Assembly (NCBI GenBank): GCA_021769135.1
Contig: JAETTM010000001.1
Span: forward strand, 12,366 to 76,365
Origin: Lachnospiraceae bacterium
GTDB lineage: Bacteria; Bacillota; Clostridia; Lachnospirales; Lachnospiraceae
DNA: 64,000 nucleotides
Reading direction: 5' to 3'
The translations under genes were made by a program, and so were the position numbers. Under the pieces are notes generated by a model. The model was given only the letters and a program-made list of their open reading frames with translations. It did not search any database and was not told where the DNA came from. Below, one piece after another: positions 22,318-44,475 of this stretch (position 1 is the stretch's first letter; each line of letters begins with the position of its first letter).

Positions 22318-23661
22318 TCAAAAAATTCTATCCGGCACTGCCTTCATTTCCAGCCTGTCAAAATAATAAGAGGGCATATATTCATCGTTGAAATATTCTA
22401 TGGGGTTACGAATCCCCATATCTTTCAACTGCGCCTTGATTTCCTCATAGTAAATATTACAGATGAACACAGCGCATTCTTCCGGCAGTTCCTTTAGGCA
22501 CTGGGGGTTTTTCACCTCCAGTCCGCAAAAAACAGTGCCCCATATGGCAGAATCGTTATCGCATGAATAAAGCGGCGGATATTTCTCTCCATAGCATTTC
22601 ATATAATTCCTGCACATATTCCCTGCACCGAACAGCACTCTGGACGGGTATTTTTTCAGTATATTTTCCATTCCTATCTGCCATTTGAAATAATCCGCAA
22701 TGGCCTTTGCCCATTTCAGCAGTTCCGGATACAATAAGGACGGAAAGGCCGAAATAGTATCTTTCATATTGAAAATCATCTCCCCTGCAAATCCCTGCTC
22801 CCGCAGCCCGCGAATCAGCCCCAGCCAATCCGTCTGCGCCTGCCCGTTGTTCACGCTGGCAAAGGGCAACAGCGCATTTTCGTGGCTTCCATCGCAGTCC
22901 CGCAGCACTACCGCTTTCAGCCGCTCACCCAGCCCTGAAATAAAATCATACATATTCATGCCGCACAAATTGCATGCTCCCACATCCATACAAAAGCCAA
23001 ACCGCTCTTCGCCCAATGTTTCATTGAAACTGTCCACCCAGCTTATCGCTTCATATATGTCTGCGCAAATTCCTCTCACCAAGTGCCCATTTCTATCTCT
23101 GCACTGATTTTCCAGCAATATCTGCACTTCATACTCCCTAGCCAGCAATGCCAATTCCATATAATATTCTCTGTTTCTGCTCCATATTTCTTCATCCGGA
23201 ATGCCAGCAAACAACGGCCTTATCACTATGTATTTGCAGCCCGCCTGGCCGCATGCCCGAATGCTCTCCTTCGCCAGCATTGCGAGAAGGGCATTTAAAT
23301 TCGAATACTTATAGCTTCTTGGCAAATAGGGAGCATAGGCAATTTTTATCCGCATGCCGCTTTTTTGGCATTGTTCTATTAACGAAAAAGACTGCGAAAG
23401 GCTGATACTGCCATTGCCATCATACTCGTTTTCAGCACTCTCTCCGCAGCATTCTTCCTCAAAGGCCAATGCGGCTTCCGTTCCCCTTTCTTTCCCTGTC
23501 TTTTCCAGTTCTTCCGGCGGACAACAAAGTGAAAAGTCCAGCAGCATGCTTTCAAAACCTGCATCGGAGAGGCAGGCAATTCCCCTGCCAGGGCTTTTTA
23601 TAGATACGATTCCGGCTGGGGCGCATACTATGTTTATTTCTTTGTTTGTTTTTTCTGTCAT
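22318..23661 (-). CDS. TIM-barrel sugar phosphate isomerase/epimerase fused to the C-terminal Rossmann-like module
   Basis: 447 aa. KYIVIRP..ILLENQ..FCMDVGACNL..AVVLRDCDG, then RVLFGAGNMCRNYMKCYG..SCDNDSAIWGTVFCGLEVKNPQCL..AVFICN..IKAQLKDMGI. Confidence 0.8.
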   Translation of the reverse strand: MTEKTNKEINIVCAPAGIVSIKSPGRGIACLSDAGFESMLLDFSLCCPPEELEKTGKERGTEAALAFEEECCGESAENEYDGNGSISLSQSFSLIEQCQKSGMRIKIAYAPYLPRSYKYSNLNALLAMLAKESIRACGQAGCKYIVIRPLFAGIPDEEIWSRNREYYMELALLAREYEVQILLENQCRDRNGHLVRGICADIYEAISWVDSFNETLGEERFGFCMDVGACNLCGMNMYDFISGLGERLKAVVLRDCDGSHENALLPFASVNNGQAQTDWLGLIRGLREQGFAGEMIFNMKDTISAFPSLLYPELLKWAKAIADYFKWQIGMENILKKYPSRVLFGAGNMCRNYMKCYGEKYPPLYSCDNDSAIWGTVFCGLEVKNPQCLKELPEECAVFICNIYYEEIKAQLKDMGIRNPIEYFNDEYMPSYYFDRLEMKAVPDRIF

Positions 23662-23806
23662 AATAATCCTTATTCTCCCCAGTCTCCTAATATATATTCT
23701 TCAATATCATATCTCTGATTCAAAACATGCTCCTCCATCATCTCAGCTTCCGCAAAAAGTCTGATTGCTGTCTTTTTCGGTTTGATGCCATTTCGTCTCA
23801 TCTTTG

Positions 23807-24889
23807 CTAAACTGCATATAAAACAGTATCAAACCAAGCGTTTGCATATTGTCGCACATACAGCTTATATTCCCGATTCATTTCCTTTATCATCATTGGA
23901 ATTGTATATAAATCATCTGGCTTATGATAAATACACACCGCCAGTTTTGGCTTATACGTCTGTATAATTTTCCTACAACCTTTCAGCGCTTCCTGCTCTG
24001 CCCCTTCTATGTCCATTTTTATGTAGGTAGGTCTCCTATCATAAACCATTTCATCCAAAGCAACAGTTTCAATTATATTTTTTCCACTCACTTCAGACAC
24101 ATAAGAACTACCCGTTCCCATAGCATTGAAGTAAAGCTTTGTACTTTTACTCCAAACGCCTAACGGGTATAGATGATAACGATTATTTCCCATATTTTTC
24201 TCTATTATTGCTTTTTTAGAAACTTCCGGCTCAAAAATAATAATATCCTGATATTTTCCACCACAATGTTCTATAAATTGCAAGGCCGAGTCTCCATCAA
24301 AACCTCCGCAGTCTATAAACACTTCATCTTCTTTCAATACAACTTTTTCTTCAAAATATTCCTCTCCATCATAACTGACAATCTGTGAAATATCACTTAA
24401 CAAAAATGCTTTCTTCATTCTTTCAAGATATACCTGTCTGGAAAATTCATCCTCCAAAAGCCGATATGCTTCCCTGTATGCCTCAATATTTGCATCAAAA
24501 TATTCTTTTGTCTGCCAATAAAAAAACTCATTCATAATATGTATCTGTGTTTCATTGAATCCCAGCGAAAGCAATTGTTGATAAATCGATTGATATGCTT
24601 TTTCCTCCCCTACACAAACCAATATTTCCGGATGAATAATTGTACCATTCAGCTCCTCTGGCTTGATAACCTTAAGTCCTGTTATTTCATCTATACCACC
24701 GCCCATTCCATTATCACAAAAACATAATGCCTGAATGCCATAGCTATACAGCAGGTCATAAATTCTATGTCCACAGTCACCAGCTCCAAAAATAATCGGA
24801 CTCCCTTCCTTTATATTGCCAAAAAGCCTGTCTTTTATTTTATCTGCCTGCTCTCTAATTTCCTCTGCCACACAGTTAAATCTTTGCAT
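23807..24889 (-). CDS. N-terminal Rossmann-like module fused to an FkbM-family methyltransferase
   Basis: Start chosen at MQRFNC (GAGAGGAA SD). IIFGAGDCGHRIYDLL..FCDNG..GLKVIKPEEL, then FIDCGGFDGDSA..YIKMDIEGAEQEAL. Confidence 0.85.
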   Translation of the reverse strand: MQRFNCVAEEIREQADKIKDRLFGNIKEGSPIIFGAGDCGHRIYDLLYSYGIQALCFCDNGMGGGIDEITGLKVIKPEELNGTIIHPEILVCVGEEKAYQSIYQQLLSLGFNETQIHIMNEFFYWQTKEYFDANIEAYREAYRLLEDEFSRQVYLERMKKAFLLSDISQIVSYDGEEYFEEKVVLKEDEVFIDCGGFDGDSALQFIEHCGGKYQDIIIFEPEVSKKAIIEKNMGNNRYHLYPLGVWSKSTKLYFNAMGTGSSYVSEVSGKNIIETVALDEMVYDRRPTYIKMDIEGAEQEALKGCRKIIQTYKPKLAVCIYHKPDDLYTIPMMIKEMNREYKLYVRQYANAWFDTVLYAV

Positions 24890-24920
24890 ATGCCATTCCT
24901 CTCTTATCGTATCTTCCACA

Positions 24921-25847
24921 CTATTCACCAAACAATACCCGACATTCAATACCTTCAAGCTGTAGGTTTTCCTTAATTGCCAATGATGCATGTTCCGATG
25001 CCGTAACCAAGCAATTGTACTGTTCGCTGTCCTTTTTGTATTCCTGAAGCGAAATCACCTTTTTTCCTTTACGCTGGCTGCCTACTTTAATACTCGAATT
25101 ATCTACAAAAAAACATACATTATCATTTCCCAAAATTTCTAAAACAGCATCTCCTATCCATCCTGCCCCAAATAACACAATAGGTTTCTTCTCCACAAAA
25201 TGCTCACACGCACTTTTTACTTTTTTCTTAATAATATCATACATTTTGCTGTCATCAATCGGCACCCTTATTTCTTTTTTAAATGGTTCGCCCTTTATAT
25301 CATTGCAAGGGCTTTTCTGCGCTGCAAGGCAGGTATCATTCCACTCACTCAACCAATCTATTAAGTAATTCATCTCCGGAACACCTCCCGTGGAGGCATG
25401 ATGCACCTTCATGCCCGCCCATTTGGCAAGTGCCGCTAATCCCTCTCCATAATAACGGTAACAGTCGCTTGATGCACCATAATAAACGGAAGAAGGTACA
25501 ATGATAAAGCAAAAACCAGAGGGTTTCAATATTCTTTCAATTTCTTTCATCGTAAGCCAAGGATATTCAATATATTCAAACGTCTGTCCTGATATCACAA
25601 CATCGAAGCTTTCGTCTTCTATTTCTTTCCAATCATAAACAGACTTTGGAACCAAATCTACATTTGGCCCCTCATGAATATCCAACCCTATATAACTGTA
25701 TCTGGAATCCGCAAAAATTTCCCTGTAGGTTCCCTCTTTATCGCAGCTTCCTACATCAAGCACCTTTATCTTCCCTCTGCTTTCCGGGAAAAATTGTTCA
25801 TAAAAGCTTACCATATATGCCATTTTTTTATACGATGATAAATGCAT
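24921..25847 (-). CDS. Class I SAM-dependent methyltransferase fused to the C-terminal Rossmann-like module
   Basis: VLDVGSCDKEG..FDVVISGQTFEYIEYP..LKPSGFCFIIVP, then IVLFGAGWIGDAVLEILG..FVDNSSIKVGSQRKGKKVISLQE. Confidence 0.85.
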   Translation of the reverse strand: MHLSSYKKMAYMVSFYEQFFPESRGKIKVLDVGSCDKEGTYREIFADSRYSYIGLDIHEGPNVDLVPKSVYDWKEIEDESFDVVISGQTFEYIEYPWLTMKEIERILKPSGFCFIIVPSSVYYGASSDCYRYYGEGLAALAKWAGMKVHHASTGGVPEMNYLIDWLSEWNDTCLAAQKSPCNDIKGEPFKKEIRVPIDDSKMYDIIKKKVKSACEHFVEKKPIVLFGAGWIGDAVLEILGNDNVCFFVDNSSIKVGSQRKGKKVISLQEYKKDSEQYNCLVTASEHASLAIKENLQLEGIECRVLFGE

Positions 25848-25861
25848 ATTTGCCCCTCCTG

Positions 25862-28117
25862 CTACATCAGTTTTTTATCAATCAATGCCTTTATTTTACT
25901 GGAGCTGGTGCTCTCTGTATAGGGAAAAAACACCATCGCAGAACCGTTTTGCTCTAAAAATTCCTTGTTGTTTATCCATGACGGATTGTTTATATAATCG
26001 CTTCCCGAAAACTGACAGTCAAAATGATACATCTTGTATGCCTCCTTTGTATCATGAAATTGCAAAGGAATTTCCACCGCTTCATCCACATAACGGCAGG
26101 AACGCACCATTTCTATCCTTTCCTCAAACGGCACAAAAGGTTCCACCTTCTTTATTTTGCGCACTCCTTCATCCGTTACTACACCCACAATCAAATAATC
26201 ACACTGCTCTTTGGCACGTTTAAACATGTTCAGATGCCCGATATGGAACAAATCGAAAACGCCTGAAATATATCCCACGTGATATTTCTTTTGCACAGCC
26301 CCATCTATATCTTGAACAGTTCCTCTGCTTTTTCTTTCATAGCCTATATTGGCATCATATATACTGTATTTATCCACACCCAGACTTTTTAGCTGTCTTA
26401 ACACAGATATATAATTTTTAATGCACACAATTACTTTGTATTCAGCAGGTTTTAGCTGTCTAAGGATTTCCGGTGAGCAGATTTCTACACCGTCTATGCT
26501 TTCTCCCCATTTGGCTTGATTATTATCGATAATAGCATACACCGGGTAATCCTTTCGGTACAAAGCAATAAATTTTTTTGCAAAGTTTCCCGAACCAAAA
26601 AGAATTAATTTGCGAGTATCCACATCCTTAAATATATCAATAAAAATTTCTCTGTACTCAGAATCTGAACAGTTAATCCTCTGGCGATTTGAATTCACAA
26701 CATCATCATTTATCCGATGCCTGCTATAATACCCTAACAAGCTCTCCTCATTTAAAAGCTTTGACAAAAAAACATACTCCATCTCCGCCCAGTGCTCTGC
26801 TTTGTCAAGAAGATGATATCTAGCAAACATTTCACTCATAGGAATAATTCTACTTAACGATGCATTGCCGCTATAAAACGTAGTAATCATTCTCGCTATA
26901 ATTGCATTGGCTGGATAGTTCTCCTGGCAAAATTCCTGATCATAAAACACAAATTCGCCGTCTATGTAAAAGCTGTTGAGCGGCACCATATCAATATAAC
27001 CTCTACGCAAAATGACCCCTTCACCGTCACCCATATCTTCTTTCACATGCTCTGAGGACTGTAAAATCAAATCACGAAAATAATCCATCTCCTTCAAAAA
27101 TGCATCCTTATCCGTCCGAATCAGGCGCTTTAGATAAAGCTGCGCCGCTTCCCCTCTCATATAAGGCATAACATAGGCATCCTTTTCAATTCGGGCATCA
27201 ACTATGGAAATCCCATGAGCAGCCAAATCATTTGCGTGCTCCACAAATAACGCCAGCCGCTTTCTCCCTTCTGGATATGCCGCCCTTTTCTCTACTCTCT
27301 CTGAATGGTGAATAATAGTAAAAAGCGCCCTCTCCCTGCCTCTGTCCATAGAACATGTTACATGGTCAATGTCTGACAATGTACCGTCTATCGTGCACTC
27401 TATGAGATATGCGTTTGCCATCTGATGAAACATATCGTTATCCACCAGACCCTCATACAACAGCCTTTCATTCATAAAAGCCGTATAAGGATAATTCAAA
27501 AGCGGAATCAACCTGTTTGCCAAATCCTCTGTGGGAAGAAAGTGTTCTGAATAAATAAGCGTTGGATTCTTTAAATCCGAAAAAACAGAAAAAAAGCAAA
27601 ACTGCTCAAACCCTGACACATTCAACATTCTTCTAATCTCGGCACGATTATAACTCCTGCCCTGGAAGTCATCTTCTATTTTGGTATATGCATACTGATA
27701 TCCTTCTATACCATCAAAACTTCTGTTCGTATAAGGGTCTCTGTCACCACAAAAATATCGAATTCCCATCCGATTGTTCATGCCAAGGAGCATAATCCCG
27801 CTGCCTTTAAGAATTATATAAAATACATCTAAAAAAGGCGCAGGAATTGCCTGTCTTTCCAAAGCCTCTATACAAACTATATAATCAAAATAATGACGAT
27901 GCTCCTGCTGCCATGCCTCTTCCAGCAGCCTTTCCAGTGGTGCACATGTGATACTCATTTCTTTTTCCCATAGCATATGAGCCAAAGGCGTATTTTCATC
28001 TCCAATATAGAGCACATCGCTCCCTTCCTTAAAATCATACCATTGCAGAAGCCCCTTTTGTATCCCCTCAATCAATTCCTGCGTCTGTTCCACCTTTATC
28101 CTCCTTTCTTCATGCAC
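25862..28117 (-). CDS. Four-domain fusion: methyltransferase-like / kinase-like (APH-ChoK fold) / Rossmann-like module / HxGH cytidylyltransferase
   Basis: 751 aa. Residues ~25-175 VLYIGDEN..FDYIVCIEALE..LKGSGIMLLG. Residues ~230-470 GYIDMVPLNSFYIDGEFVFYDQEF (kinase-like D..N..D). Residues 503-588 LILFGSGNFAKKF..IIDNNQAKWGESIDGVEICSPE. Residues 610-751 GYISGVFDLFHIGHLNMF..YLIVGVVTDE..CRYVDEAV..SSSKIK (TagD-like). Confidence 0.85.
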   Translation of the reverse strand: MHEERRIKVEQTQELIEGIQKGLLQWYDFKEGSDVLYIGDENTPLAHMLWEKEMSITCAPLERLLEEAWQQEHRHYFDYIVCIEALERQAIPAPFLDVFYIILKGSGIMLLGMNNRMGIRYFCGDRDPYTNRSFDGIEGYQYAYTKIEDDFQGRSYNRAEIRRMLNVSGFEQFCFFSVFSDLKNPTLIYSEHFLPTEDLANRLIPLLNYPYTAFMNERLLYEGLVDNDMFHQMANAYLIECTIDGTLSDIDHVTCSMDRGRERALFTIIHHSERVEKRAAYPEGRKRLALFVEHANDLAAHGISIVDARIEKDAYVMPYMRGEAAQLYLKRLIRTDKDAFLKEMDYFRDLILQSSEHVKEDMGDGEGVILRRGYIDMVPLNSFYIDGEFVFYDQEFCQENYPANAIIARMITTFYSGNASLSRIIPMSEMFARYHLLDKAEHWAEMEYVFLSKLLNEESLLGYYSRHRINDDVVNSNRQRINCSDSEYREIFIDIFKDVDTRKLILFGSGNFAKKFIALYRKDYPVYAIIDNNQAKWGESIDGVEICSPEILRQLKPAEYKVIVCIKNYISVLRQLKSLGVDKYSIYDANIGYERKSRGTVQDIDGAVQKKYHVGYISGVFDLFHIGHLNMFKRAKEQCDYLIVGVVTDEGVRKIKKVEPFVPFEERIEMVRSCRYVDEAVEIPLQFHDTKEAYKMYHFDCQFSGSDYINNPSWINNKEFLEQNGSAMVFFPYTESTSSSKIKALIDKKLM

Positions 28118-28132
28118 CTGCAGATTTAACGC

Positions 28133-29434
28133 TTATACATCTATTTTTCTCGCCGATACCGTTATAATATTGGGAAACCGAAGCTTCTTTAAGCAGTCCA
28201 GCATTGCCTGAAATGTATCTGATTTCTCTTTTACTGCCAAAATAACCAGGCTTATATCTTTTTCACTAAGGCAGTCAGAAATTTCACATACAGGTTCTCC
28301 CTGGCATTCCATACTCTTTCCACTAAGACTTGTAACTGCAACCCTTATCCTCTGCGTGTCCGTCTTCGCCTTTTTTACTCTATAGGTGATCTGTTCGCCA
28401 TATACGCCTGCGCCATATACAATAATATTTTTATAGCCCCGGACAGCTTCCCTTGTTATTTCCCTCCCCTGCATCAAGGCATCCTCCACATAGGCTAACG
28501 GATTACTTATAATCGAAATCTGTTCCTGGGTCATACGGTCATAAAACGCTTCATTCTGCTCTTCAAAAAATATTTTCTCCTGTTCCATTACCTTTGCAAA
28601 TTCCAGTTTCATGGGAAAGTCAATTTTCCACAGAGTGCTTATATACTCCATCATCCGCAAGTGAAAGCAAATTCGGTATAGTTTTTTATCTATATCTCTC
28701 TGGTCCCTCATAAACCTTCGGATAAAGTCAAACTCATTTTTCATAGCATACACTTTTTGTTTGTTGTGTATGGATGAAAGCATATTATCCTGCCTGTAGT
28801 TATAAAATGCCTTGTCCAAGAACATAACCCGCCGAGACCAGTAAAAAGTCTGAAACCAAAACCCGTTGTCCTGAAAAGATGCGCCCGGCGTTTCATTATA
28901 TCTAATCTTATTTTGGAGAATCAACTCTTTTTTGTATAATGCATCCCATGTGAACTTTTCAAGGAAATACGAGTCTAACTCTGAATTAGGGTTAAGAACC
29001 CTGTTATACATCCTCTTTTCTTCCGTCATGGTGCAATACTTCTTCTCCATTGTACCGTCTTCCTTATCCCACACGGCAAAGAAGTCTGTCTTTACAAAGT
29101 CCAAATCATACTCTGTAATTGTATGATATAGGACCTGATACATATCACATTCAATTGTATCATCACTCTCAACAATACCGATATATCTTCCCTGGGCCAG
29201 CAACATCGCCTCATTCATTGTATTCCCGTAGCCAGTATTTTCCTTATGTACAACCTTTACCCGCTTATCCTTTAGCGCATACTCGTCTAAGATTTCCCCT
29301 GACCGGTCCGTGGAACCGTCATCCATACAGATTACCTCAAAATCTGTAAATGTCTGCGCAAGTATGCTGTCAAGACAAGCCCTCAGATATTTTTCAACAT
29401 TATAAACCGGTACAAGAACCGATATTTCCACCAT
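28133..29434 (-). CDS. GT2 glycosyltransferase fused to the C-terminal Rossmann-like module
   Basis: ISVLVPVYNVEKYLRACLDSILAQT..ICMDDGSTDRS..IVESDD, then NIIVYGAGVYGEQITYRV. Confidence 0.9.
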   Translation of the reverse strand: MVEISVLVPVYNVEKYLRACLDSILAQTFTDFEVICMDDGSTDRSGEILDEYALKDKRVKVVHKENTGYGNTMNEAMLLAQGRYIGIVESDDTIECDMYQVLYHTITEYDLDFVKTDFFAVWDKEDGTMEKKYCTMTEEKRMYNRVLNPNSELDSYFLEKFTWDALYKKELILQNKIRYNETPGASFQDNGFWFQTFYWSRRVMFLDKAFYNYRQDNMLSSIHNKQKVYAMKNEFDFIRRFMRDQRDIDKKLYRICFHLRMMEYISTLWKIDFPMKLEFAKVMEQEKIFFEEQNEAFYDRMTQEQISIISNPLAYVEDALMQGREITREAVRGYKNIIVYGAGVYGEQITYRVKKAKTDTQRIRVAVTSLSGKSMECQGEPVCEISDCLSEKDISLVILAVKEKSDTFQAMLDCLKKLRFPNIITVSARKIDV

Positions 29435-29438
29435 ACTG

Positions 29439-30323: not shown

Positions 30324-30342
30324 CACAGCCTCTTTTCCATAT

Positions 30343-31953: not shown

Positions 31954-31980
31954 ATGGCCTCCCGTTAGAACTCTATTCTA

Positions 31981-32457
31981 CTAAACTTCAAACACAATAT
32001 CCTCTATAGAAACAATCGGACATTCTACTTTCTCCTTGAGCATTTCTTCTATTTCATCAAAAAAATCAATTGCAGTTACCACAATAGCATCTACATGGCC
32101 TGGCAGCTCCTCTGGCAGCACAATCGTAATATCGGCATGGCTGGAAAGCACCCTTTTGTCAATTCCATATGCCACTTCTATTTCTGTTCCTTTCAACTCC
32201 TCCAAAAGAGTCTCCCCAATATAACTCATCCCATAGATAGCAACTTTCCTGTAGTTATTTTTTTCAAAAAAAGAAGATAAATTTTTCCCCTCCTGCTTTA
32301 CCTTCACCCATTGATTCATCATATGGAACATTGCTAAAAATTTCCCTGATAATCTTTCCGCTTTCTTTCGTTTATCTCTTTCCGCTTTGCCCACAGCCCC
32401 AGCACCTGCCAATGCTCCCACCAAAGCCGAAAATACCGAAATGGTTTCCTTTTTCAT
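31981..32457 (-). CDS. Stand-alone copy of the Rossmann-like module with an N-terminal hydrophobic helix
   Basis: 158 aa. ISVFSALVGALAGAGAVG, a basic stretch, then MMNQWVKVKQEGKNLSSFFEKNNYRKVAIYGMSYIGETLLEEL..GIDKR..DAIVVTA. No catalytic domain is attached. Confidence 0.65.
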   Translation of the reverse strand: MKKETISVFSALVGALAGAGAVGKAERDKRKKAERLSGKFLAMFHMMNQWVKVKQEGKNLSSFFEKNNYRKVAIYGMSYIGETLLEELKGTEIEVAYGIDKRVLSSHADITIVLPEELPGHVDAIVVTAIDFFDEIEEMLKEKVECPIVSIEDIVFEV

Positions 32458-32471
32458 TTAAACATTTCTCC

Positions 32472-33653: not shown

Positions 33654-33709
33654 TTTGTCGTCTCCTTGTCTGATTTTTTATCCGATTATTTACCAGAGGC
33701 GCTGTATCT

Positions 33710-34939: not shown

Positions 34940-34976
34940 TATTTTCTCCCCCTGACAACACTCCTGTTACAATATA

Positions 34977-36185: not shown

Positions 36186-36244
36186 AAATAATCATGCTCC
36201 TTTATTCATAGTTTACTCCATTACACCTTCTAGCCTCCATAATA

Positions 36245-37783
36245 TCAACTAAGCAAATCATTCATCCAATTTTCGATAGAAACTGCATTTTGAATTTCCT
36301 TTTGCCGCATTTTTTCAATTACCTCTTCTGCACCATACACTGTAACAATTAAAATGTCCGTTTGTGGAATCTCTTCTTGCAGTCTATACATTGGTATGCT
36401 CTCCAATACTCTTGCCGCATCAATATCCACTGTATAAGCAATTTCTATCCCTTCCTGAATCAGTTGATTAATTAACAATTTTCCAATTGGCCCCACGCCA
36501 TATACAGAGATTTTTTTAATATTTTTTTTATTAAAATATTTTTTTATTTTGTAGGAATTATTTTGTATGATTGATGCGAATCGTATTGTATTTTCATACA
36601 ACCATCTAAACTTATTTATTTTATCATTTAGTAGCTTTAACTGACCTGTTATCTCTTCTTCTGTATAACTATAGCTATATTCACTGGGAATCTCCACCAT
36701 TTCATATTTAGCATTCACTTTTTTAATAGATTCTAACGCTGCATATCCGTTTTCTTCATCAGGTTCCAAGTACATTCCTTCTCCCCACTCATTCCATGCA
36801 TTGATAAATATATATTCGTTTCCGCATTCAATGGCTTTTTTGTACAGTCCATCAATTAACACTTCAAACAACTCACTTGAATTGTCCAACAAACATTCCC
36901 CATTATATCCACGTCTGGGTGTAGTATCATATCCCGGCACTCCACAGAAATATGTTTTGATGCCAATTAAACATTGATTATTTAGCATTTCCTCTACAAA
37001 ATCCGAATATTTAAAACAAGTCACCCCATTTTTTACCGAATATAGATTTTTCTCTAATAATTTTTTTCGTGTATATGTAGGTTCACTTATCAATACCGCA
37101 TCCAGTTCTTCTCTATATCCTGAAACATTGGCTCCAATAAAATAAAGTCCTTTTAATCCTTCCTCTTTTGCTAAATCTGCCCAATATTTTGTCATCTTTT
37201 CTATGCAAGGTATCTGTTCAGCATTATGAAAGATAAAAACAGGTTTGCCATCAATTTTTATATATCTTTCGTCTCTAAAGAATTGAAGTAAATAGTCAAA
37301 ATGTTCTTTCCATTCCTTTCTTGATCCAAAATTTTGTTCAATAAGGATTCCTTCTCCCCCCCGTTCAACATCTTTATCAAATTTTTCTCCCCAAACATCC
37401 CCATAAAAGTTACTCCAGGTTCTAATCCAACTTTTACTCGCCCAGTTAAGGCAATACGGAATATCAATGTCTTTCCATTGGAGCAGGTTTTCTACAGGTT
37501 TTTCCAAAACCCTAGCACCGTCTTTAAAGTAATAATGATAAAAGCAAAATCCATATATGCCATATTTTTTCATCAACTTTTCTTGGTTTTGAAATGTCTT
37601 TTTATCTAACAAATCATAGTAATCATAACCTAATGGAATCTTCGGCTGCTTATGGTCATCGAAACAGGGAAGTGCTTTTTTTACTGCTGTCCAATCAGTA
37701 AACCCCTTTCCCCACCACCTACTGTTATATTCTGTTTCATGATACTGCGGAAGATAGATTGCAATTAGTTTTAAATTATTCAT
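36245..37783 (-). CDS. WbsX-family glycosyltransferase/glycosidase-like protein fused to the C-terminal Rossmann-like module
   Basis: LIAIYLPQYHETEYNSRWWGKGFTDWTAV..INAWNEWGEG, then KKISVYGVGPIGKLLINQL..TVDIDA. Confidence 0.8.
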   Translation of the reverse strand: MNNLKLIAIYLPQYHETEYNSRWWGKGFTDWTAVKKALPCFDDHKQPKIPLGYDYYDLLDKKTFQNQEKLMKKYGIYGFCFYHYYFKDGARVLEKPVENLLQWKDIDIPYCLNWASKSWIRTWSNFYGDVWGEKFDKDVERGGEGILIEQNFGSRKEWKEHFDYLLQFFRDERYIKIDGKPVFIFHNAEQIPCIEKMTKYWADLAKEEGLKGLYFIGANVSGYREELDAVLISEPTYTRKKLLEKNLYSVKNGVTCFKYSDFVEEMLNNQCLIGIKTYFCGVPGYDTTPRRGYNGECLLDNSSELFEVLIDGLYKKAIECGNEYIFINAWNEWGEGMYLEPDEENGYAALESIKKVNAKYEMVEIPSEYSYSYTEEEITGQLKLLNDKINKFRWLYENTIRFASIIQNNSYKIKKYFNKKNIKKISVYGVGPIGKLLINQLIQEGIEIAYTVDIDAARVLESIPMYRLQEEIPQTDILIVTVYGAEEVIEKMRQKEIQNAVSIENWMNDLLS

Positions 37784-38856
37784 TTTCTTTTCCTTCCAAT
37801 AACCGTAATCACTATTTGATAATACTCATCATTAAACATATAGTCACTTTCATTGAGATCCTCCATGCATAACCCATATAAAAGTGCCGTGGCAACTTTA
37901 GCATTGCCATACGAATGTACTTCCACTTCATCAAAATACTTTTCAAACAATAATTTTACTGATTTTTTTGTGAACCTCCAATACTCCCCCCATCTATTAT
38001 AATCTGATATTGATAATTGGCTAATACCATGCATTGTTACTAATGCCGTTCCATTATCTTTTAATGAACGATAAACGTTTTTTATTGTACTTTCAATATC
38101 AAAAATACATTGTAAAGTCTGGGTACATATAAAGCAATCCAACATTTCTTCCTGAATGCCCTCTCCCGTAACTAAGTCACCTTTTATGGCCTTTTCCCCT
38201 AATCCCATTGCATGTAACACGTAGGCCTCTTCTACTTTTTCTCCATATTTTTTTATATAAGTGTCATCCCCAATTTCCATAACACTGCCACAAATTAAAT
38301 TACTTTCGCTTTCCAAAAACTTTTCAATATAATATCTGTCTACTGGCGTTCCCCTTTCCCTGCCAAACCTTCTACTAAGAGGTTCCAATGGCAAACTTAA
38401 TATATCGTTTATTATATGCTTGTCCTTTATCAATCCATTCATTATTCTTGTGTATTCCCTAATATCGGCAAACTTGTAGTTACCACTATTGCATGTAACG
38501 AATAACTCACCGTTTTTCGATACCACTTTCCCATTTAGCTGGCTTAATATCTCCTCTGTACAATCAAAATAGGGGCTATAGTTCATGCCAAATTCTATAC
38601 GATTTTCGTCAATCCCTTCCTTCATCAACTGTTTCCACATTTCAATAAAATGAATTGACATGATTATAATTGGTATCTTGGGTAAATTTATTAATTCTTT
38701 TGGTAAATAGGTAGGAATATCACTTTCCTCTGTACTTATGTCTATATAGCTATCTGCTGCATTATCTATAAATGCAATAATTCTATATTCTTTTTCAATC
38801 TGTTCCTTTTTTCTTTCAAAATACCATCCTTTACCAAATACAATAATATCTTGCAT
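37780..38856 (-). CDS. N-terminal Rossmann-like module fused to a SAM-dependent methyltransferase-like domain
   Basis: MQDIIVFGKGWYFERK..FIDNAAD, then GSVMEIGDDTY..LDCFICTQTLQCIFD..LKDNGTALVTMHG. 4-nt overlap with the next gene. Confidence 0.75.
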   Translation of the reverse strand: MQDIIVFGKGWYFERKKEQIEKEYRIIAFIDNAADSYIDISTEESDIPTYLPKELINLPKIPIIIMSIHFIEMWKQLMKEGIDENRIEFGMNYSPYFDCTEEILSQLNGKVVSKNGELFVTCNSGNYKFADIREYTRIMNGLIKDKHIINDILSLPLEPLSRRFGRERGTPVDRYYIEKFLESESNLICGSVMEIGDDTYIKKYGEKVEEAYVLHAMGLGEKAIKGDLVTGEGIQEEMLDCFICTQTLQCIFDIESTIKNVYRSLKDNGTALVTMHGISQLSISDYNRWGEYWRFTKKSVKLLFEKYFDEVEVHSYGNAKVATALLYGLCMEDLNESDYMFNDEYYQIVITVIGRKRK

Positions 38857-38875
38857 ATAATCTATTCCTCCATAT

Positions 38876-39727
38876 TTAATATTTGTTTAGAAAGACCTTT
38901 CTTACCCGTTTCTGTGCCCTATACTCTTGAATAGAAAAATCCCAATATTTTAAATCTATTACCTCAATTTCATTAAGGGTATTATAGGTATGTATTCCTG
39001 TGAATTTTCTCTTGGTTTTTATAGGAATATCGTCTACTGATATTTTTCTTATTAAATGTTCCTCATAATTTGGCCAAACGCTATCTATTTCACTAAAAGC
39101 TAAACCACCCCCATAGCCTTTAGAGCAATCCTGTGATACCCGGATATACTTGCCATTTTTGTTAAGTATATTTCCTCCTGGACGAGCAAATTCCCTATTA
39201 TCAGTTATATGCCTTTCCCCATCAATGCAGCCATCTTTTAATCTATACAAATAAAGGCCACCACCATGCCTTTGAAAGCTCGGTTTAAATGTAAATAAAT
39301 AATTTTCCCCTTTATATGGGAAAAATGTTGTATCCACACACTTTTCATTTTCAATAAATGTATTTGTTTTCATCCATTTATCCGGAAACTCCCGAAGCTT
39401 ATATACACTCACGTCTTCTCTTTGATAACTTTCCGGGCACATATATAATTCATCATGATAAACAAATATATTTGGATAAGATAAATGCCAGTGCCTGTCC
39501 ATTGTAACTACCCATTCACCAAAAACCCCATTATGGTATTCACAATAACCGATGACTCCATTACGTTCAGATTTATACAAATAAAGCTCTGCGAATAAAT
39601 ATATTTTCTCCTGAAATTCTACCAAAAAAGGATCTGCTGCCCATGCATAAGGTGGGTTAGGAATCAAACGAAACTCTTTTTCTTCTTTCATACGGTAGGC
39701 AATTTGCCAATGATTAAACTTTATCAT
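38876..39727 (-). CDS. Hypothetical protein (possibly a beta-propeller, GH43-like fold)
   Basis: 283 aa. PYAWAADPFLVEF..LSYPNIF..YGGGLAF. The family was not securely recognised. Confidence 0.55.
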   Translation of the reverse strand: MIKFNHWQIAYRMKEEKEFRLIPNPPYAWAADPFLVEFQEKIYLFAELYLYKSERNGVIGYCEYHNGVFGEWVVTMDRHWHLSYPNIFVYHDELYMCPESYQREDVSVYKLREFPDKWMKTNTFIENEKCVDTTFFPYKGENYLFTFKPSFQRHGGGLYLYRLKDGCIDGERHITDNREFARPGGNILNKNGKYIRVSQDCSKGYGGGLAFSEIDSVWPNYEEHLIRKISVDDIPIKTKRKFTGIHTYNTLNEIEVIDLKYWDFSIQEYRAQKRVRKVFLNKY

Positions 39728-40844
39728 AATTTTTGTTTATATCCTGATATATTTTCTCAATCTCTTTTATTTGTTGATTAGTGTCAAATCCTTTCATCAT
39801 AATAATCTTGCTTCTATCTTCTCTCTTTTTCTGAAATGATGCCTTTTTTATCTTCTGAATCCACTCTTCACGATTTGACAACGGTATGCGCTCCGTTCCC
39901 TCAATAATCAAAGCCTCTTGCGGAATCCCTTCGCTACAAAGGCATTCTAATCCACTACATTGTGCCTCCAATAAAACAAGTGGAAATCCTTCCAATAGAG
40001 AAGGCAATACAAAGACATCCATAGCCTGATAATAAGACTCAGTATCTTCTTTTTTACCTACGAAGGTAACCAAATCCATTATTCCAAGCTCCTTTACTAT
40101 TTTTTCCAAATTTTCCCGTAAGGAACCATCTCCTACAATAAGCAAGGCAGCATGGCTAATTTCCTTATGGATTTCAGCAAATATCTCTATCAAAAACTGT
40201 TGATTTTTCACGCGTTCTAATCTGCCAATATGCCCTATTACGAACTTATCTTGTAATTTGAGCCGTTCTCTTATCCGTTCCCTGGATTTTGGGGAAAACG
40301 CAAATCTTTTCGTATCAATCGTGTTTTTAATAAACTTAATTTTTTCTTTTGGTACGGCATCTCCATAAAGCCAATCCGAAGCACTTTGTGAACATGAGAA
40401 ATAGTAATCAGCTAAACTTGCATTGATTTTCCTTTTTATTTCTATATGCCTTTTAAACAATTCTGCTTCTTCATCTGCATTTTTAGCTTTTGATATACCT
40501 GTACTATGCGCATGAATAATAACCTTAATTCCTTTCTCCTTTGCCATTACCTCAACAATAGTGCTCTTCCAAAAACTTGTATGTATCTCTATTGCATCGT
40601 ATTTTTGATTTAGCACATTTCGAAATTCAGCAATAAATGTCTCCATATTTTCCTCTGGATATGCAGATATCCGATACACTTGACAGCCATTATTGATAAA
40701 TTCTTCTGCAAAATCAATTGTTTTACTAAATGTCACAAAATCAAAATGCACCTTGCTTTTATCCATACATCGCCAAATATTCGTTATGTATTGCGTATAT
40801 CCTCCTTTCGATGCTGCAATTGCAAATTGAAGTATTCTTACCAT
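39714..40844 (-). CDS. GT4 (GT-B) glycosyltransferase
   Basis: Start at MVRILQF (GGGGAGAAAG SD). GHIGRLERVKNQ..LPSLLEGFPLVLLEAQCSGL. Confidence 0.85.
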   Translation of the reverse strand: MVRILQFAIAASKGGYTQYITNIWRCMDKSKVHFDFVTFSKTIDFAEEFINNGCQVYRISAYPEENMETFIAEFRNVLNQKYDAIEIHTSFWKSTIVEVMAKEKGIKVIIHAHSTGISKAKNADEEAELFKRHIEIKRKINASLADYYFSCSQSASDWLYGDAVPKEKIKFIKNTIDTKRFAFSPKSRERIRERLKLQDKFVIGHIGRLERVKNQQFLIEIFAEIHKEISHAALLIVGDGSLRENLEKIVKELGIMDLVTFVGKKEDTESYYQAMDVFVLPSLLEGFPLVLLEAQCSGLECLCSEGIPQEALIIEGTERIPLSNREEWIQKIKKASFQKKREDRSKIIMMKGFDTNQQIKEIEKIYQDINKNYDKV

Positions 40845-40860
40845 ATTATCTTTCTCCCCA

Positions 40861-41904
40861 TTAAATTTTTCTTCTATTCTCCGCCATCTCCACCCCCGCA
40901 AAAATAGCGTCCATCATACTCTCCTCATTTGCCCTGCCTTCCCCCGCTTTTCCAAAAGCCGTTCCATGGTCCACCGAAGTCCGGACAATGGGTAATCCAA
41001 TGGTACAGTTAATACCACTTACCGAGTCATACATATTCTTCTGCAAATCATATTTAAATCCACTCAATTTCAGTGGAATATGACCTTGGTCATGATACAT
41101 GGCCACCACAATATCAAATTGCCCGGCCTGACATTTTACAAAAACTGTATCCGGTGATTCCGGCCCGGTCACATCAATCCCCTCTTTTCTCGCTTCCTCT
41201 ATAGCGGGCAGAATCTCCTGTGTTTCTTCCGTTCCAAAAAGGCCGTTCTCTGAACAATGGGGATTCAAGCCTGATACTCCAATTTTAGGGTGCGCATATC
41301 CCAGTTGCCGCATCCCCTCCTGCGCCAGCCGGATAACCTTTAGCACCCGTTCTTTCTTCACTCTGTCACAGGCCTCCCGTAGCGAACAGTGTGTGGATAC
41401 ATGTATCACCCTTAACGTCTTGCTGGCAAGCAGCATGGCAAAATCTTTCGTATTAGTATAATCCGCAAAAATTTCCGTATGTCCACTGTAATGATGCCCT
41501 GACATGTTAATAGATTCTTTGCTAATTGGCGCCGTCACCACTGCCTGCACATTACCCTCCATTGCCTGCTTAATTCCATATATTACATATTGAAAAGATG
41601 CTTCCCCGCATTTTGCACTGTTTTGTTTATACTCCCACTCGCCTGGCCTAATTTTTTTCATGTCAATAAAATCAATGTAGCCAAACTCCCCTTTGGCTTC
41701 TGACACATCTGCCACTTTGCGCAGTTTAACAGGCAGACTGCAAAAACAAATAGCATCTGCCAGCGCTGCATAATCACCGATTACCACCGGTATGCACTTC
41801 TTATATATGTCCACATGGCTCAGTGCCTTTACAATGATTTCCGAACCAACCCCTGCCGGGTCACCCATAGTAATAGCGATTCTCATCCTTTTTCCCTGGC
41901 TCAT
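40861..41904 (-). CDS. PdxA-family NAD-dependent 4-phospho-hydroxyacid dehydrogenase
   Basis: RIAITMGDPAGVGSEI..YSGHTE..IHVSTHCSL..DHGTAFGKAG. Its ATG overlaps the stop of the upstream cytidylyltransferase (ATGA). Confidence 0.88.
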   Translation of the reverse strand: MSQGKRMRIAITMGDPAGVGSEIIVKALSHVDIYKKCIPVVIGDYAALADAICFCSLPVKLRKVADVSEAKGEFGYIDFIDMKKIRPGEWEYKQNSAKCGEASFQYVIYGIKQAMEGNVQAVVTAPISKESINMSGHHYSGHTEIFADYTNTKDFAMLLASKTLRVIHVSTHCSLREACDRVKKERVLKVIRLAQEGMRQLGYAHPKIGVSGLNPHCSENGLFGTEETQEILPAIEEARKEGIDVTGPESPDTVFVKCQAGQFDIVVAMYHDQGHIPLKLSGFKYDLQKNMYDSVSGINCTIGLPIVRTSVDHGTAFGKAGEGRANEESMMDAIFAGVEMAENRRKI

Positions 41905-42338
41905 ATACTATCTCCGCTCATGATTTTCTCCCGGATTTCCGTAGTGGAAATTCCTTTTGTATAGGGAACATACACCACATCCACATTTACTTTAGCAAGC
42001 ACCTTTTCAAACTGATTCCACCGCGGTGTTCCTTTCCAGTCATCGCCGATGAACACCACATCAAAGTGGTACAGTTCCCACAGCTTTAGTTTATCCCGAA
42101 ACCGATTGATTTCCGCCCGGTCCACCCCTTTCACCGACTCTATAATTCTTTTTCTATCATTTTCATTAATAATTGGCCGACAATGCTTATATTCTTCCAC
42201 CACATCGTCTCCATGTACCCCTACTATCAAATATTCACAATTTTGTTTTGCTGTTTGAATCATGTTTAAATGCCCTATATGGAACAAATCGTATACCCCG
42301 TCCGTATAACCAATTTTATATTTCCTCTTTTCTTCCAA
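41901..42338 (-). CDS. TagD-like HxGH cytidylyltransferase
   Basis: 145 aa. IGYTDGVYDLFHIGHLNMIQTAK..YLIVGVHGDD..STTEIREKI. Confidence 0.88.
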   Translation of the reverse strand: MEEKRKYKIGYTDGVYDLFHIGHLNMIQTAKQNCEYLIVGVHGDDVVEEYKHCRPIINENDRKRIIESVKGVDRAEINRFRDKLKLWELYHFDVVFIGDDWKGTPRWNQFEKVLAKVNVDVVYVPYTKGISTTEIREKIMSGDSI

Positions 42339-42430
42339 TGTCTGTCGCTCCTTAAATGTAACAGTTCAGCCTCCCTTAACGCTCTGCTTCCTCTATACTA
42401 GAAAATAGCCTTATACTATCTATCAATGCT

Positions 42431-43267
42431 TTAGTTCTCCGGCAATTTAAGTTCTGACACCGGATGCACCTTGCGTTTATCTTTTGGCGGAAGCTCCATA
42501 TAGTTTCCATATTTTACTTTCAGATAGCCGTCATAGTCCATCGCCCCAGGAAGGTTCATATCCGCAAACCGATATTCCGCCAACTGTGTATACCACTTTC
42601 TCTCATATCCGTATACCCTTTTCGGAGTCGGAAATGTGAGGATACGCACCAGCTTAGTTTTTTTCTTTTGTCCATCATCAATAAATTTCTGATAACGATT
42701 TACAATCATTTTCATCGGAATATGTCTAAGCAAATGATAAATACATCGTATCCCTGTATTTTTTTCTACCCTGCTTCCCACTTCCGACCAAAACAGCTTG
42801 CGAAATAAAAAACATCGGAAAAAATGGATTCTCCTGGAAAGCCACCCATCCGGCACATTGTCAAAAGGCATAAGGTCTATAAAAATTCCCTGCTCATAAG
42901 GCATAAATTCCTGTCCAAGCCTTGTAAACACCGTATTTTTCCTGCGAAGCTTGCCATATCCCCAGCGGTATCCTTCCGTATCCCGCAAATCCTGCATATA
43001 ATATTTTTCATGGTTCAGCTCTGTTTTACATGCTTTTCGGAATTTTTCATACTCCGTTCGAAGGAACCCAATGTCCGCATCATCATCCCATGGAATATGC
43101 CCTTTATGACGGATAGCTCCGAGCATCGTTCCTCCGACCATATTGAAATGAATATTGCACTTTTGGCATATTCGTTTTACCTCACCAATCAATTCCCTCT
43201 GAACGCCCTGAATCTGCCCCAACTCTTTTTCTGATATACAATATTGTTGCATTTTACTATTACTCAC
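42431..43267 (-). CDS. LicD-family phosphotransferase
   Basis: LIGEVKRICQKCNIHFNMVGGTMLGAIRHKGHIPWDDDADIGF. Confidence 0.88.
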   Translation of the reverse strand: MSNSKMQQYCISEKELGQIQGVQRELIGEVKRICQKCNIHFNMVGGTMLGAIRHKGHIPWDDDADIGFLRTEYEKFRKACKTELNHEKYYMQDLRDTEGYRWGYGKLRRKNTVFTRLGQEFMPYEQGIFIDLMPFDNVPDGWLSRRIHFFRCFLFRKLFWSEVGSRVEKNTGIRCIYHLLRHIPMKMIVNRYQKFIDDGQKKKTKLVRILTFPTPKRVYGYERKWYTQLAEYRFADMNLPGAMDYDGYLKVKYGNYMELPPKDKRKVHPVSELKLPEN

Positions 43268-43308
43268 TTTTTCTTCCCTTTATTATCATAAACTTTTCTT
43301 ACAAAATT

Positions 43309-44475
43309 TTATTTCCCTGCGGGTTCACATTCTGTTAAATAATTAGTAAAAACGCCCGTTACATTCATTCTTCTAAGTGCCGAATACTCATCAACAGAAT
43401 CCGTACTGAAAGCAAATATTTTAATATTTTTATCTGTAAAAATCCTTATTAACTTCTTCCACTCCAAGCAGGCATCTACCGGCATCGCTATTACTTTTAC
43501 ACCATATTTATGACAGAGGATGACTGTATTCATGAAATAAGACCATTGTGGATTTCTATATTGTGTAAAAATCATGTTGAATTCTTTTTCCTTTGCAATC
43601 TTAATTGTCTCTTCATCATATACTTCCATAATAACTTGACCTTTCAAGACACCTCTTTCATTACTATCATCACAAATAGTTTGGATAAGCCTGTCGATTT
43701 CATTTACCAGAAGACAATATTCATCATGATCTTTCCATTTAGTATCAATAAGACAGTGCATCTCTCTATGCTTTTTTAAAAGCATGAGCAGGTCTTTTGC
43801 TGTCATCATCGAATACTGTTCCTCTTCCAATTCCCAGCAACGTTCCCAATCATGCAGCAATACTAATTCCCCATTATATAAACGCGTCAAATCACATTCT
43901 AAAAGCTTAAATTTTTTCTTTACCGAATATTCAAAAGCTTCTTTTGAATTTGAATACATCATTCTTTTTCCATTAACAATTCCACCACAAGCATGGGAAA
44001 TCATTCTGCCTTTGTTGTACCATTCTTCCACTTTTTCTTCGCAAGCCGGAATCTTTGAATAAATATCAAACATAGTTCTATATTCTGTAACAATATTTAT
44101 TATTTTTTGTGGTTCAAAATATATCTTTTTTATAAGATTTATATCAATATCATCTATATTTCCCACACAATATCGTTTAATATCCTTTGCAACAAATACT
44201 TGAATTTTTTCCTTTTCAATCCCCATATCTATTAACTGTTCTTTAATTCCCTCATATGCTGATAATGCCGTTACCAAAATATAGTCTACAGCCTTCTCGC
44301 AAACCAACTGTTTGGAAGCAGCCATAATAGGAATATTCCTATAACAAATCCCATGCTTCGTTTCATCATTATCAAAAAATAATACTATTTCCGTATTTAA
44401 TGGATTGATTCCTTCTATGATAGCATTTAAAATGCCATCACTGATTCCCCAAATTGCAATTCGAACTTTTTTCAT
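43309..44475 (-). CDS. N-terminal Rossmann-like module fused to a glycerophosphodiester-phosphodiesterase-like (GDPD) domain
   Basis: VRIAIWGISDGILNAI..FFDNDETKHGICYRNIPI, then ISHACGG..YSNSKEAFEYSVKKKFKLLECDL..GELVLLHDW. Confidence 0.7.
   Translation of the reverse strand: MKKVRIAIWGISDGILNAIIEGINPLNTEIVLFFDNDETKHGICYRNIPIMAASKQLVCEKAVDYILVTALSAYEGIKEQLIDMGIEKEKIQVFVAKDIKRYCVGNIDDIDINLIKKIYFEPQKIINIVTEYRTMFDIYSKIPACEEKVEEWYNKGRMISHACGGIVNGKRMMYSNSKEAFEYSVKKKFKLLECDLTRLYNGELVLLHDWERCWELEEEQYSMMTAKDLLMLLKKHREMHCLIDTKWKDHDEYCLLVNEIDRLIQTICDDSNERGVLKGQVIMEVYDEETIKIAKEKEFNMIFTQYRNPQWSYFMNTVILCHKYGVKVIAMPVDACLEWKKLIRIFTDKNIKIFAFSTDSVDEYSALRRMNVTGVFTNYLTECEPAGK

Follow-up and report, generated by a model that had tools for sequence, protein, structure and literature searches.

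The stretch analysed here, 64,000 nucleotides of contig JAETTM010000001.1 from a Lachnospiraceae bacterium (hereafter the window, with positions counted from its first letter), carries on its minus strand a glycan operon of about 21 tightly packed genes, which we delimited from the list of open reading frames (ORFs), from Pfam and NCBIfam matches and from a hydrophobicity scan. The products are soluble enzymes that build and decorate a glycan, and 12 of these about 21 consecutive genes encode one and the same module of about 85 amino acids (aa), attached to enzymes of unrelated kinds and, once, standing alone (Table 1). The operon genes without the module encode a second TIM barrel, two GT4 proteins, a GINT1_N-like protein, a PdxA-like protein, a small cytidylyltransferase, LicD and a cytidylyltransferase-GFO fusion. 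Nucleotide-activated chemistry is abundant in the operon according to Pfam and NCBIfam (three cytidylyltransferases, LicD and the glycosyltransferases), and the ORF list, both family searches and the hydrophobicity scan revealed no flippase, polymerase, ABC transporter or phosphoglycosyl transferase in it. The same gene order is found on the public contigs L001-L006.

Table 1. The glycan operon, the twelve module copies and the N-terminal features of the stand-alone protein. E values in the sixth column are from the leave-one-out searches described in the text.
Feature	Coordinates	Strand	Gene	Description	Leave-one-out E	Precomputed PF22674 match
Glycan operon	21247..45890	-		about 21 tightly packed genes		
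Copy 1	22393..22641	-	22318-23661	C-terminal to AP_endonuc_2 (xylose-isomerase-like) TIM barrel	6.3e-11	
Copy 2	24536..24799	-	23807-24991	N-terminal to FkbM methyltransferase (Pfam Methyltransf_21)	1.6e-8	weak
Copy 3	24933..25181	-	24921-25847	C-terminal to class I S-adenosylmethionine methyltransferase (Methyltransf_11)	8.8e-11	yes
Copy 4	26357..26611	-	25862-28117	internal in 751-aa protein	1.9e-12	yes
Copy 5	28160..28429	-	28133-29434	C-terminal to GT2; ranked above all non-members	2.9e-3	
Copy 6	30397..30615	-	30343-31953	C-terminal to GT4	2.7e-12	yes
Copy 7	31984..32247	-	31981-32457	stand-alone 158-aa protein; loop YGMSYIG, then GIDK	4.5e-9	
Copy 8	34658..34909	-	33710-34939	N-terminal to GT-D (E 1.6e-82)	1.4e-7	yes
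Copy 9	35028..35273	-	34977-36185	C-terminal to RgpF (E 1.5e-55); Asp after strand 2 absent	2.2e-6	
Copy 10	36260..36514	-	36245-37783	C-terminal to WbsX (E 2e-109)	4.1e-7	
Copy 11	38593..38850	-	37780-38856	N-terminal in 358-aa protein	3e-7	weak
Copy 12	44197..44460	-	43309-44475	N-terminal to GDPD (E 3.7e-10); loop WGISDG, then FDND	1.5e-8	
Hydrophobic Gly/Ala-rich segment, residues 5-23 of stand-alone protein	32389..32445	-		followed by Lys/Arg-rich stretch; Kyte-Doolittle 19-residue mean 1.72		
Leader helix of stand-alone protein, residues ~38-66	32260..32346	-		KHLxxFxMMNQWVKxKQxGKxLxxYF (alignment consensus)		

For each of the twelve copies, a hidden Markov model (HMM) was built from the other eleven and searched against all 495 stop-to-stop six-frame ORFs of the window. 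Every held-out copy came out at rank 12, right behind the eleven training copies. Eleven copies scored between E = 1.9e-12 and E = 2.2e-6 in these leave-one-out searches, and the GT2 copy was the weakest (E = 2.9e-3, 13 bits); the best ORF outside the family reached E = 0.06-1.0. These statistics exclude chance matches to a G-x-G-x-x-G pattern. The HMM of all twelve copies finds exactly these twelve in the 64 kb at 60-91 bits, with the next match at 7 bits and no thirteenth copy, and it gives no match to the true Rossmann domains of two genes, GFO/IDH/MocA (44547-45890) and Glf (14183-15292). An earlier note on this DNA, made from the sequence alone, had claimed twelve homologous modules, and the searches bear this out: all lie on the minus strand, and the HMM envelopes are within a few codons of the spans given there, except that the GT4 envelope begins about 12 codons inside its span. 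The family is also far denser here than elsewhere, since a fraction of about 1e-5 of 1.84 billion representative proteins matches at E <= 1e-3, compared to 12 of about 21 operon genes.

An alignment of the twelve segments spans about 87 columns, in which one Gly is invariant and an Asp nearly so, and this alignment and the HMM show that the copies are homologous to one another, with every non-member at E >= 0.06. Pairwise identity is only 20-35%; the copies are therefore old paralogues and not recent repeats. Two subfamilies are visible, one formed by the TIM-barrel, 751-aa and FkbM copies and the other by the stand-alone, GT4 and WbsX copies; the GT4 and stand-alone copies match each other with a pairwise E of 1e-13. 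The glycine loop reads G-x-G in ten copies (for example FGAGNMC, followed by CDND, in the TIM-barrel protein) and G-x-S in two, those of the stand-alone and GDPD proteins. The Asp after strand 2, read by eye from the alignment, is present in ten copies and absent from the GT2 and RgpF copies, and the GT2 copy, which also has an insertion, is the most divergent.

Most of the catalytic partners named in the earlier note were recovered by Pfam: the AP_endonuc_2 TIM barrel, FkbM, Methyltransf_11, CTP_transf_like, GT2, GT4, GT-D, RgpF, WbsX and GDPD. On the other hand, the part of the 751-aa protein described there as kinase-like has no match in Pfam or NCBIfam, and the methyltransferase assigned to the 358-aa protein is seen weakly (E about 2e-3), the matches of its C-terminal part to Methyltransf_12/23/11 (E 2e-3 to 6e-3) falling below the curated cut-offs. 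The 751-aa protein consists of a family-less N-terminal region of about 500 aa, the module and a CTP_transf_like cytidylyltransferase (residues 617-743). The N-terminal part of NCBIfam TIGR03570 (NeuD/PglB/VioB) matches its residues 503-569 with E = 1.5e-4 and 21 bits against a cut-off of 160.8. By eye, its first about 120 residues look like a class I methyltransferase, which Pfam and NCBIfam did not detect, and a motif at residues ~380-400, where both are blank, recalls aminoglycoside/choline-kinase folds. In the GT-D protein (409 aa), residues 149-408 are homologous to the GalT1/DUF1792 structures 4phr and 5v4a. The combination of GT2 with the module's Pfam family, PF22674, recurs in loci L022, L024 and L027. 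The longest ORF of the FkbM gene (23807-24991) overlaps the upstream gene (24921-25847) by 71 nucleotides; since a 370-aa product is called on the public contigs, its true start is probably Met25 (at about 24919). Shorter public calls exist also for the 751-aa (743), 307-aa (294), 395-aa (376) and 278-aa (273) ORFs.

The stand-alone protein is identical over its full length to the public protein P0031 (100% identity, 100% coverage). The hydrophobicity scan found its N-terminal segment to be the only N-terminal hydrophobic, membrane-like one in the operon, and the hydrophobicity, though not the exact sequence, of this segment is kept in 25 of 25 homologues. Judged by the positive-inside rule, the protein would be single-pass or surface-anchored, with the module in the cytoplasm. 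Homologues that are 39-93% identical share the hydrophobic segment and the basic stretch behind it, the conserved leader helix (MMNQWVKxKQxGKxLxxYF) and a module with YGMSYxGE and an invariant Asp. A similar leader helix can be read directly in the translations ahead of the GT4 and WbsX copies. In the AlphaFold2 model of the stand-alone protein, whose predicted local distance difference test score (pLDDT) is 84.8, a long helix (residues 4-55) and a further helix (61-66) precede the module.

Loci related to the operon were retrieved from species-representative genomes with the stand-alone protein as probe, which biases the sample towards loci that have a stand-alone copy. Fifteen loci were found, from mouse, vole, rabbit and other gut metagenome-assembled genomes, nearly all of them Lachnospiraceae. 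In each of the 15 there are 3-12 copies of the module within +-10 kb, without exception on the same strand as the stand-alone gene, and several hold two copies of stand-alone size; the stand-alone protein is kept across 15 species-level genomes at 39-84% identity. Two further annotated loci look similar and have other partners (TupA ATP-grasp, TOD1_MUCI70, DUF1796 and GT2), and again no transporters were found in their neighbourhoods. For 116 of 121 modules the nearest relative lies in another locus, which indicates that the fusions are old and vertically kept rather than products of recent shuffling within a locus. We therefore rejected recent duplication or concerted evolution as the source of the repeats.

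The use of the module as a fusion partner is not confined to these loci. A HMMER scan of all 1.84 billion representative proteins (representatives of clusters at 50% identity) yielded 19,272 matches at E <= 1e-3, of which 1,140 reach E <= 1e-10. In the top 149 proteins the module is N-terminal in 53 instances, C-terminal in 95, internal in 100 and stand-alone in 5; 90 of these proteins carry two to four copies, and 21 consist of one to three copies that leave no space for a catalytic domain. In 91 of the top proteins Pfam recognised 43 families, most of which are catalytic partners. The commonest are AP_endonuc_2 (18), GT2 (11) and GT4 (10), and LicD, FkbM, GFO, WbsX, cytidylyltransferase, radical SAM, GT-D, TagF-like, RgpF and TupA ATP-grasp domains occur as well; a few of the 43 label the module itself, as Methyltransf_14, PglD_N, C2185-like_N or CoA_binding depending on the protein. 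With so many partner families, the tendency to fuse promiscuously with glycan enzymes belongs to the family as a whole, and what the earlier note had noticed in one operon proves both real and general. The same catalytic families are found with and without the module, for example WbsX in locus L022. Among the metagenomic proteins, P0121 (621 aa) has four modules and behind them the cytidylyltransferase domain that the 751-aa protein of the window also carries, P0122 (990 aa) has tandem modules, and P0143 (423 aa) has three modules and nothing else. Relatives of P0143 lie in glycan loci of other Firmicutes, beside giant multi-GT/TagF-like enzymes (loci L026 and L027).

To which family does the module belong? 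Judged by sequence, it is no new fold: it is the already catalogued and uncharacterised Pfam domain PF22674 (C2185-like_N). Precomputed matches to PF22674.3 are recorded on seven of the 11 window-identical proteins of public contig L001 (four unmarked, three flagged as weak) and on nearly all homologues of the stand-alone protein; the other four of the 11 have no recorded match. The older model PF22674.2 detects two of the twelve copies at E <= 10, with a best E of 1.1e-3. Copies that PF22674 misses are nevertheless tied to the family, because the leave-one-out HMM links all copies. The earlier note needs correcting in that the domain already has a Pfam entry; the clustering of many copies recurs in 15 loci. 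PF22674 is named after Clostridium acetobutylicum CAC2185, which we take to be the protein of the structural-genomics entry 2g6t; presumably it has a GT-D-like domain as well and would then be built like the 409-aa protein of the window. The module profile matches 2g6t weakly (residues 37-88, E = 0.019; residues 37-99, E = 0.16), and 2g6t is outside the top 50 Foldseek matches of either of our models. A literature search on PF22674, CAC2185 and 2g6t as a protein found no paper and no described function of the family.

Profile and fold searches place the module among studied relatives. The best PDB sequence match of the profile is 3nkl, the N-terminal domain of a WbpM/PglF-type enzyme (E = 1.1e-6 and 1.7e-6), followed by Rex at 4e-6 to 3e-5 (2vt2, E = 3.7e-6; 5zz5, 3.2e-5) and VioB at 0.07. 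An AlphaFold2 model of the C-terminal 123 residues of the TIM-barrel protein (325-447; pLDDT 85) shows the leader helix and then a compact alternation of strands and helices. When only this module model was compared with the PDB by Foldseek, Rex was on top (2vt3, 6e-5, probability 1.0), with WbaP (8t53), 3nkl and the PglD homologue Pcryo_0637 (7l7z) each at probability 0.99 and VioB (7txp) at 0.98, for which the root-mean-square deviation is 2.6 Å over 81 columns. The full 158-aa stand-alone model gave a best E of 1e-3, blurred by its long N-terminal helix. Among Pfam HMMs, PglD_N (PF17836) matches four of the twelve copies weakly (best E 5.6e-4) and is absent from the full-protein scans at E <= 0.01; CoA_binding (PF02629) matches three weakly, CoA_binding_3 (PF13727) matches none, and the matches to Methyltransf_14, a C-methyltransferase C-terminal domain, fall on the module. 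The module belongs to a small Rossmann-like lineage that Pfam splits into CoA_binding, CoA_binding_3, PglD_N and C2185-like_N. The earlier guess of a PglD_N or CoA_binding_3 relationship was correct, because the profile search (3nkl 1e-6, Rex 4e-6) and the fold search (probability 0.98-1.0) both return Rex, WbaP/3nkl and PglD-type domains. Matches of a single-module phmmer search of the PDB to designed 'Bagel' propellers were spurious and driven by repeats, and we discarded them.

The nucleotide site was followed through 373 modules aligned to the HMM (the 12 of the window, 252 from the top 149 representative proteins and 109 from the related loci). The most informative columns are G6 (99%), D30 (90%), L75 (89%), G8 (85%, with Ser in 7%), I71 and G79, and position 11 is Gly, Ala or Cys in 84%. 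The classical nucleotide-binding positions are thus the best-conserved columns of the family. An hhalign comparison placed G6, G8, D30 and N31 of the module on G11, S13, D35 and D36 of PglD, with a PglD sequence whose numbering agrees with PMC8040287. In Pcryo_0637 the N-terminal domain is described as a platform for uridine diphosphate (UDP), in which Ser11, Asp40 and Asp41, equated with PglD Ser13, Asp35 and Asp36, contact ribose, phosphoryl oxygen and uracil (PMC8040287). The corresponding domain of WbaP is reported to bind uridine mono-, di- and triphosphate (UMP, UDP and UTP), to stabilise the dimer and to regulate catalysis allosterically (PMC10942596). In the earlier note degenerate glycine loops had been held against nucleotide binding. 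This objection fails: GKG is still G-x-G, and the G-x-S loops of the stand-alone and GDPD copies are the variant of PglD itself, whose Ser13 binds the UDP-sugar, and so give no evidence for lost binding. From these conserved residues we consider it probable that the module binds a nucleotide.

We hypothesize that this module, a mini-Rossmann accessory domain that measures about 85 aa and frequently follows a leader helix, holds a nucleotide moiety (a nucleoside monophosphate, a nucleoside diphosphate (NDP), or the handle that a nucleotide provides on an activated sugar or alcohol phosphate) by means of the G-x-G/S loop behind strand 1 and the Asp-Asn pair that follows strand 2. Fusion would give the chemically unrelated catalysts of the operon one common nucleotide-dependent handle. 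The modules may also pair among themselves, just as the related domains of Rex and WbaP come together in the dimers of those proteins; on this analogy, pairing seems to us somewhat less than an even bet. The anchor would then be the stand-alone copy, which its hydrophobic N-terminal helix would keep at the membrane, and the tagged soluble enzymes would be gathered at one site, possibly gated by the shared nucleotide. Our tentative preference is for this combined model, in which the tag both binds a nucleotide and pairs with others of its kind, although we would not be surprised to see it fail. It was chosen because binding of a nucleotide in cis, or sensing of one, explains the glycine loop and the Asp but neither the anchored nor the module-only proteins, and docking explains the reverse. 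The stand-alone protein with a hydrophobic N-terminus in related loci, the module-only proteins and the dimer of the WbaP domain are circumstantial support for docking, and a docking tag explains, besides the stand-alone and module-only proteins, why the module is optional, free in position and joined to unrelated partner chemistry. In its widest and doubtful form, the idea is a self-pairing 'address tag' system of Lachnospiraceae and some other Firmicutes, in which up to a dozen tagged enzymes would be collected by the anchored copy or by module-only scaffolds of up to three copies into a nucleotide-gated assembly line, a modular 'glycosylosome', and in which enzymes could be swapped between loci simply by keeping the tag.

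The strongly conserved glycine loop and Asp would also be expected if each module merely held the nucleotide of an NDP-linked substrate, or of one linked to cytidine monophosphate (CMP), while the fused domain acts on the sugar, with no contact between modules; the whole pathway would then tailor nucleotide-linked intermediates. TcaB9-type C-methyltransferases offer a parallel, beside the PglD/VioB-type acetyltransferases. The structural and sequence similarity to PglD_N proteins, the UDP-binding platform described for Pcryo_0637 (PMC8040287), the Methyltransf_14 matches on the module and the wealth of nucleotide-activated chemistry in the operon (three cytidylyltransferases, LicD, glycosyltransferases) point the same way. 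We nevertheless consider such a platform rather unlikely: it leaves the catalytically empty stand-alone copy and the proteins made of one to three modules without an account, glycosyltransferases already bind their own nucleotide-sugar donors, elsewhere these catalytic families do without the module, and the module has no fixed position relative to the catalytic domain. A little less probable still is that each module is an independent allosteric sensor, which, in the manner proposed for the WbaP domain, would read a common by-product (UMP, UDP or CMP) and throttle its enzyme without any assembly. Its appeal comes from the similarity of the fold to WbaP (8t53) and to the NADH sensor Rex, from the conserved nucleotide-site residues and from the optional, accessory use of the module on many enzyme families; the WbaP domain does bind UMP, UDP and UTP, and its regulatory role is called 'one-size-fits-all' by the authors (PMC10942596). 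However, methyltransferases, TIM-barrel enzymes and the GDPD phosphodiesterase neither make nor use the same nucleotide, and an anchored stand-alone sensor or a tandem sensor-only protein needs a partner, whereby protein-protein contacts return.

Low pairwise identity (20-35%), the two copies without the Asp, and nearest neighbours in other loci, which speak for old and stably inherited fusions, would all fit a generic structural or solubility appendage, or a passenger of domain shuffling, with no shared ligand or partner and with clustering that reflects the common descent of the locus genes. This is improbable in view of G6 and D30, near-invariant over 373 diverged copies, of the stand-alone protein retained across 15 species-level genomes at 39-84% identity, of the existence of module-only proteins, and of the wide partner range (43 Pfam families in 91 proteins), which indicates selection on the module itself. 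Hardly credible are ordinary Rossmann domains that supply NAD(P) or FAD as redox cofactors, or chance motif matches. Weak Pfam matches to 2-Hacid_dh_C, F420_oxidored and Shikimate_DH (E 0.003-0.05) hint at the former, but about 85 aa is too short for the nucleotide-binding domain of a dehydrogenase and there is no catalytic half behind it, none of the partners is a redox enzyme, and the module HMM ignores the genuine Rossmann domains of the window; on length, partners and HMM specificity a generic NAD-binding domain was rejected. Chance is excluded by the leave-one-out statistics. Several observations also weigh against the combined model of a nucleotide-binding, self-pairing tag. The Asp is missing from the GT2 and RgpF copies, and G-x-N occurs in some tandem copies elsewhere. 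For docking alone the conserved G-x-G and Asp would be superfluous, for a nucleotide site alone a stand-alone copy would be, and the combination is less parsimonious than either alone. The N-terminal segment of the stand-alone protein is Gly/Ala-rich and in some homologues only marginally hydrophobic, and instead of a transmembrane anchor it could be a helix of amphipathic or lipid-surface type. Modules of one locus are not especially alike, given that 116 of 121 have their nearest relative elsewhere, and so there is no sign of locus-specific co-adaptation. Finally, since the stand-alone protein served as the probe for the loci, its presence in all of them follows in part from the search itself; the multiplicity of modules around it does not.

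The domain family itself is already known as a Pfam entry, with solved relatives and with studied relatives in WbaP and PglD. Precomputed matches make PF22674 the same family as our module, and the locus-wide use of the module is not in any description of PF22674 that we found. PglD_N shares the small Rossmann-like fold (7l7z, 7txp) and the signature strand-G-x-G/S-x-x-G ... D-D/N, and the aligned residues are the UDP contacts of PglD. It is always fused to a left-handed beta-helix (LbH) acyltransferase, however, and integral to its active site, whereas the module accompanies 11 other folds, in any position, and also occurs alone; Pfam shows no hexapeptide or LbH domain in the 12 host proteins. 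CoA_binding_3, from the WbaP-type large phosphoglycosyl transferases and the PglF/WbpM/CapD dehydratases, also shares the fold (8t53 and 3nkl, 0.99) and is, like the module, an accessory domain of glycan enzymes, in its case membrane-proximal. Each pathway has it in one protein, behind a four-helix membrane bundle and ahead of a single catalytic domain. In comparison, the window has 12 copies on soluble enzymes and a stand-alone protein with a single N-terminal helix, and neither a membrane bundle nor a phosphoglycosyl transferase or short-chain dehydrogenase/reductase domain was found in the host proteins by Pfam or the hydrophobicity scan. Rex (PF02629), the top fold match (2vt3) and a strong profile match, is a nucleotide-sensing mini-Rossmann domain that also forms a dimer interface. 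It has a winged-helix DNA-binding domain and senses NADH/NAD+, while the module hosts have no DNA-binding domain in Pfam. If the proposed pairing holds, there is a functional analogy to dockerin-cohesin and to the docking domains of polyketide synthases and nonribosomal peptide synthetases, which likewise put one small tag on unrelated catalysts and use a non-catalytic anchor or scaffold; they have no sequence or fold relation to the module, and the pairing here would be like-with-like and not between a tag and a distinct receptor. In the literature searched we found no description of the tagging of more than half of an operon's enzymes, or of a conserved anchored stand-alone copy.

Two operon genes without the module are of uncertain family: 29439-30362 (-) encodes a 307-aa protein with no family match, and 38876-39727 (-) a 283-aa protein whose sole match is GINT1_N, the N-terminal domain of glucosamine inositolphosphorylceramide transferase 1, a family unexpected in a bacterium. 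Directly upstream of the operon lies an 876-aa ORF (46170-48800, -) with no match in Pfam or NCBIfam. In the gap between them, terminator and promoter scans found a hairpin (46144-46121, -) with promoter-like sites nearby, which may mark the operon start; the promoter scan gave matches no better than in shuffled sequence. Further upstream, 50143-51267 (-) encodes a phosphonopyruvate decarboxylase (TIGR03297, 460 bits against a cut-off of 312.5), flanked by PD-(D/E)XK-like and AAA-ATPase-like genes (49147-50058 and 51309-53021), and no phosphoenolpyruvate mutase is among the ORFs scanned. Together with LicD, the three cytidylyltransferases and GDPD, this decarboxylase hints at decoration of the glycan with a phosphonate or phospho-alcohol. 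The defence-like cluster at 56216-62144 (-), with HipA_C-like, GmrSD_N-domain, C-5 cytosine DNA methylase and AAA_35 ATPase genes, appears unrelated to the module.

On the other strand the operon adjoins a weakly FliD-like protein (10590-12122, +; FliD_C, 29.8 bits), a 647-aa protein with a Glyco_trans_1_2 domain, presumably of the CgeB family (17894-19837, +), and a GT2-tetratricopeptide repeat protein with SunS-like similarity (19905-21023, +). Because the operon has no export genes and these FliD-like, Glyco_trans_1_2 and SunS-like proteins are its neighbours, the target of the glycan may be a protein surface, that of flagellin or of the spore, instead of a lipid-linked polysaccharide. In the window, where the family searches did not cover every ORF, no flagellin gene was seen.

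How do the soluble enzymes of a glycan pathway find each other and their membrane- or protein-bound substrate? This is a long-standing question for which the evidence is mostly indirect, from two-hybrid and co-purification experiments. Should the module do no more than bind a nucleotide in cis, that would still be a useful annotation, if a much less surprising one. Because the Pfam model misses some copies (four of 11 proteins), an improved HMM would better annotate the glycan loci of gut commensals. With a tag that recurs on more than half of a locus's enzymes, and with a catalytically empty anchored copy, the gathering of enzymes would become directly testable, and an uncharacterised Pfam domain with matches in about 19,000 protein clusters (50% identity) would acquire a function.

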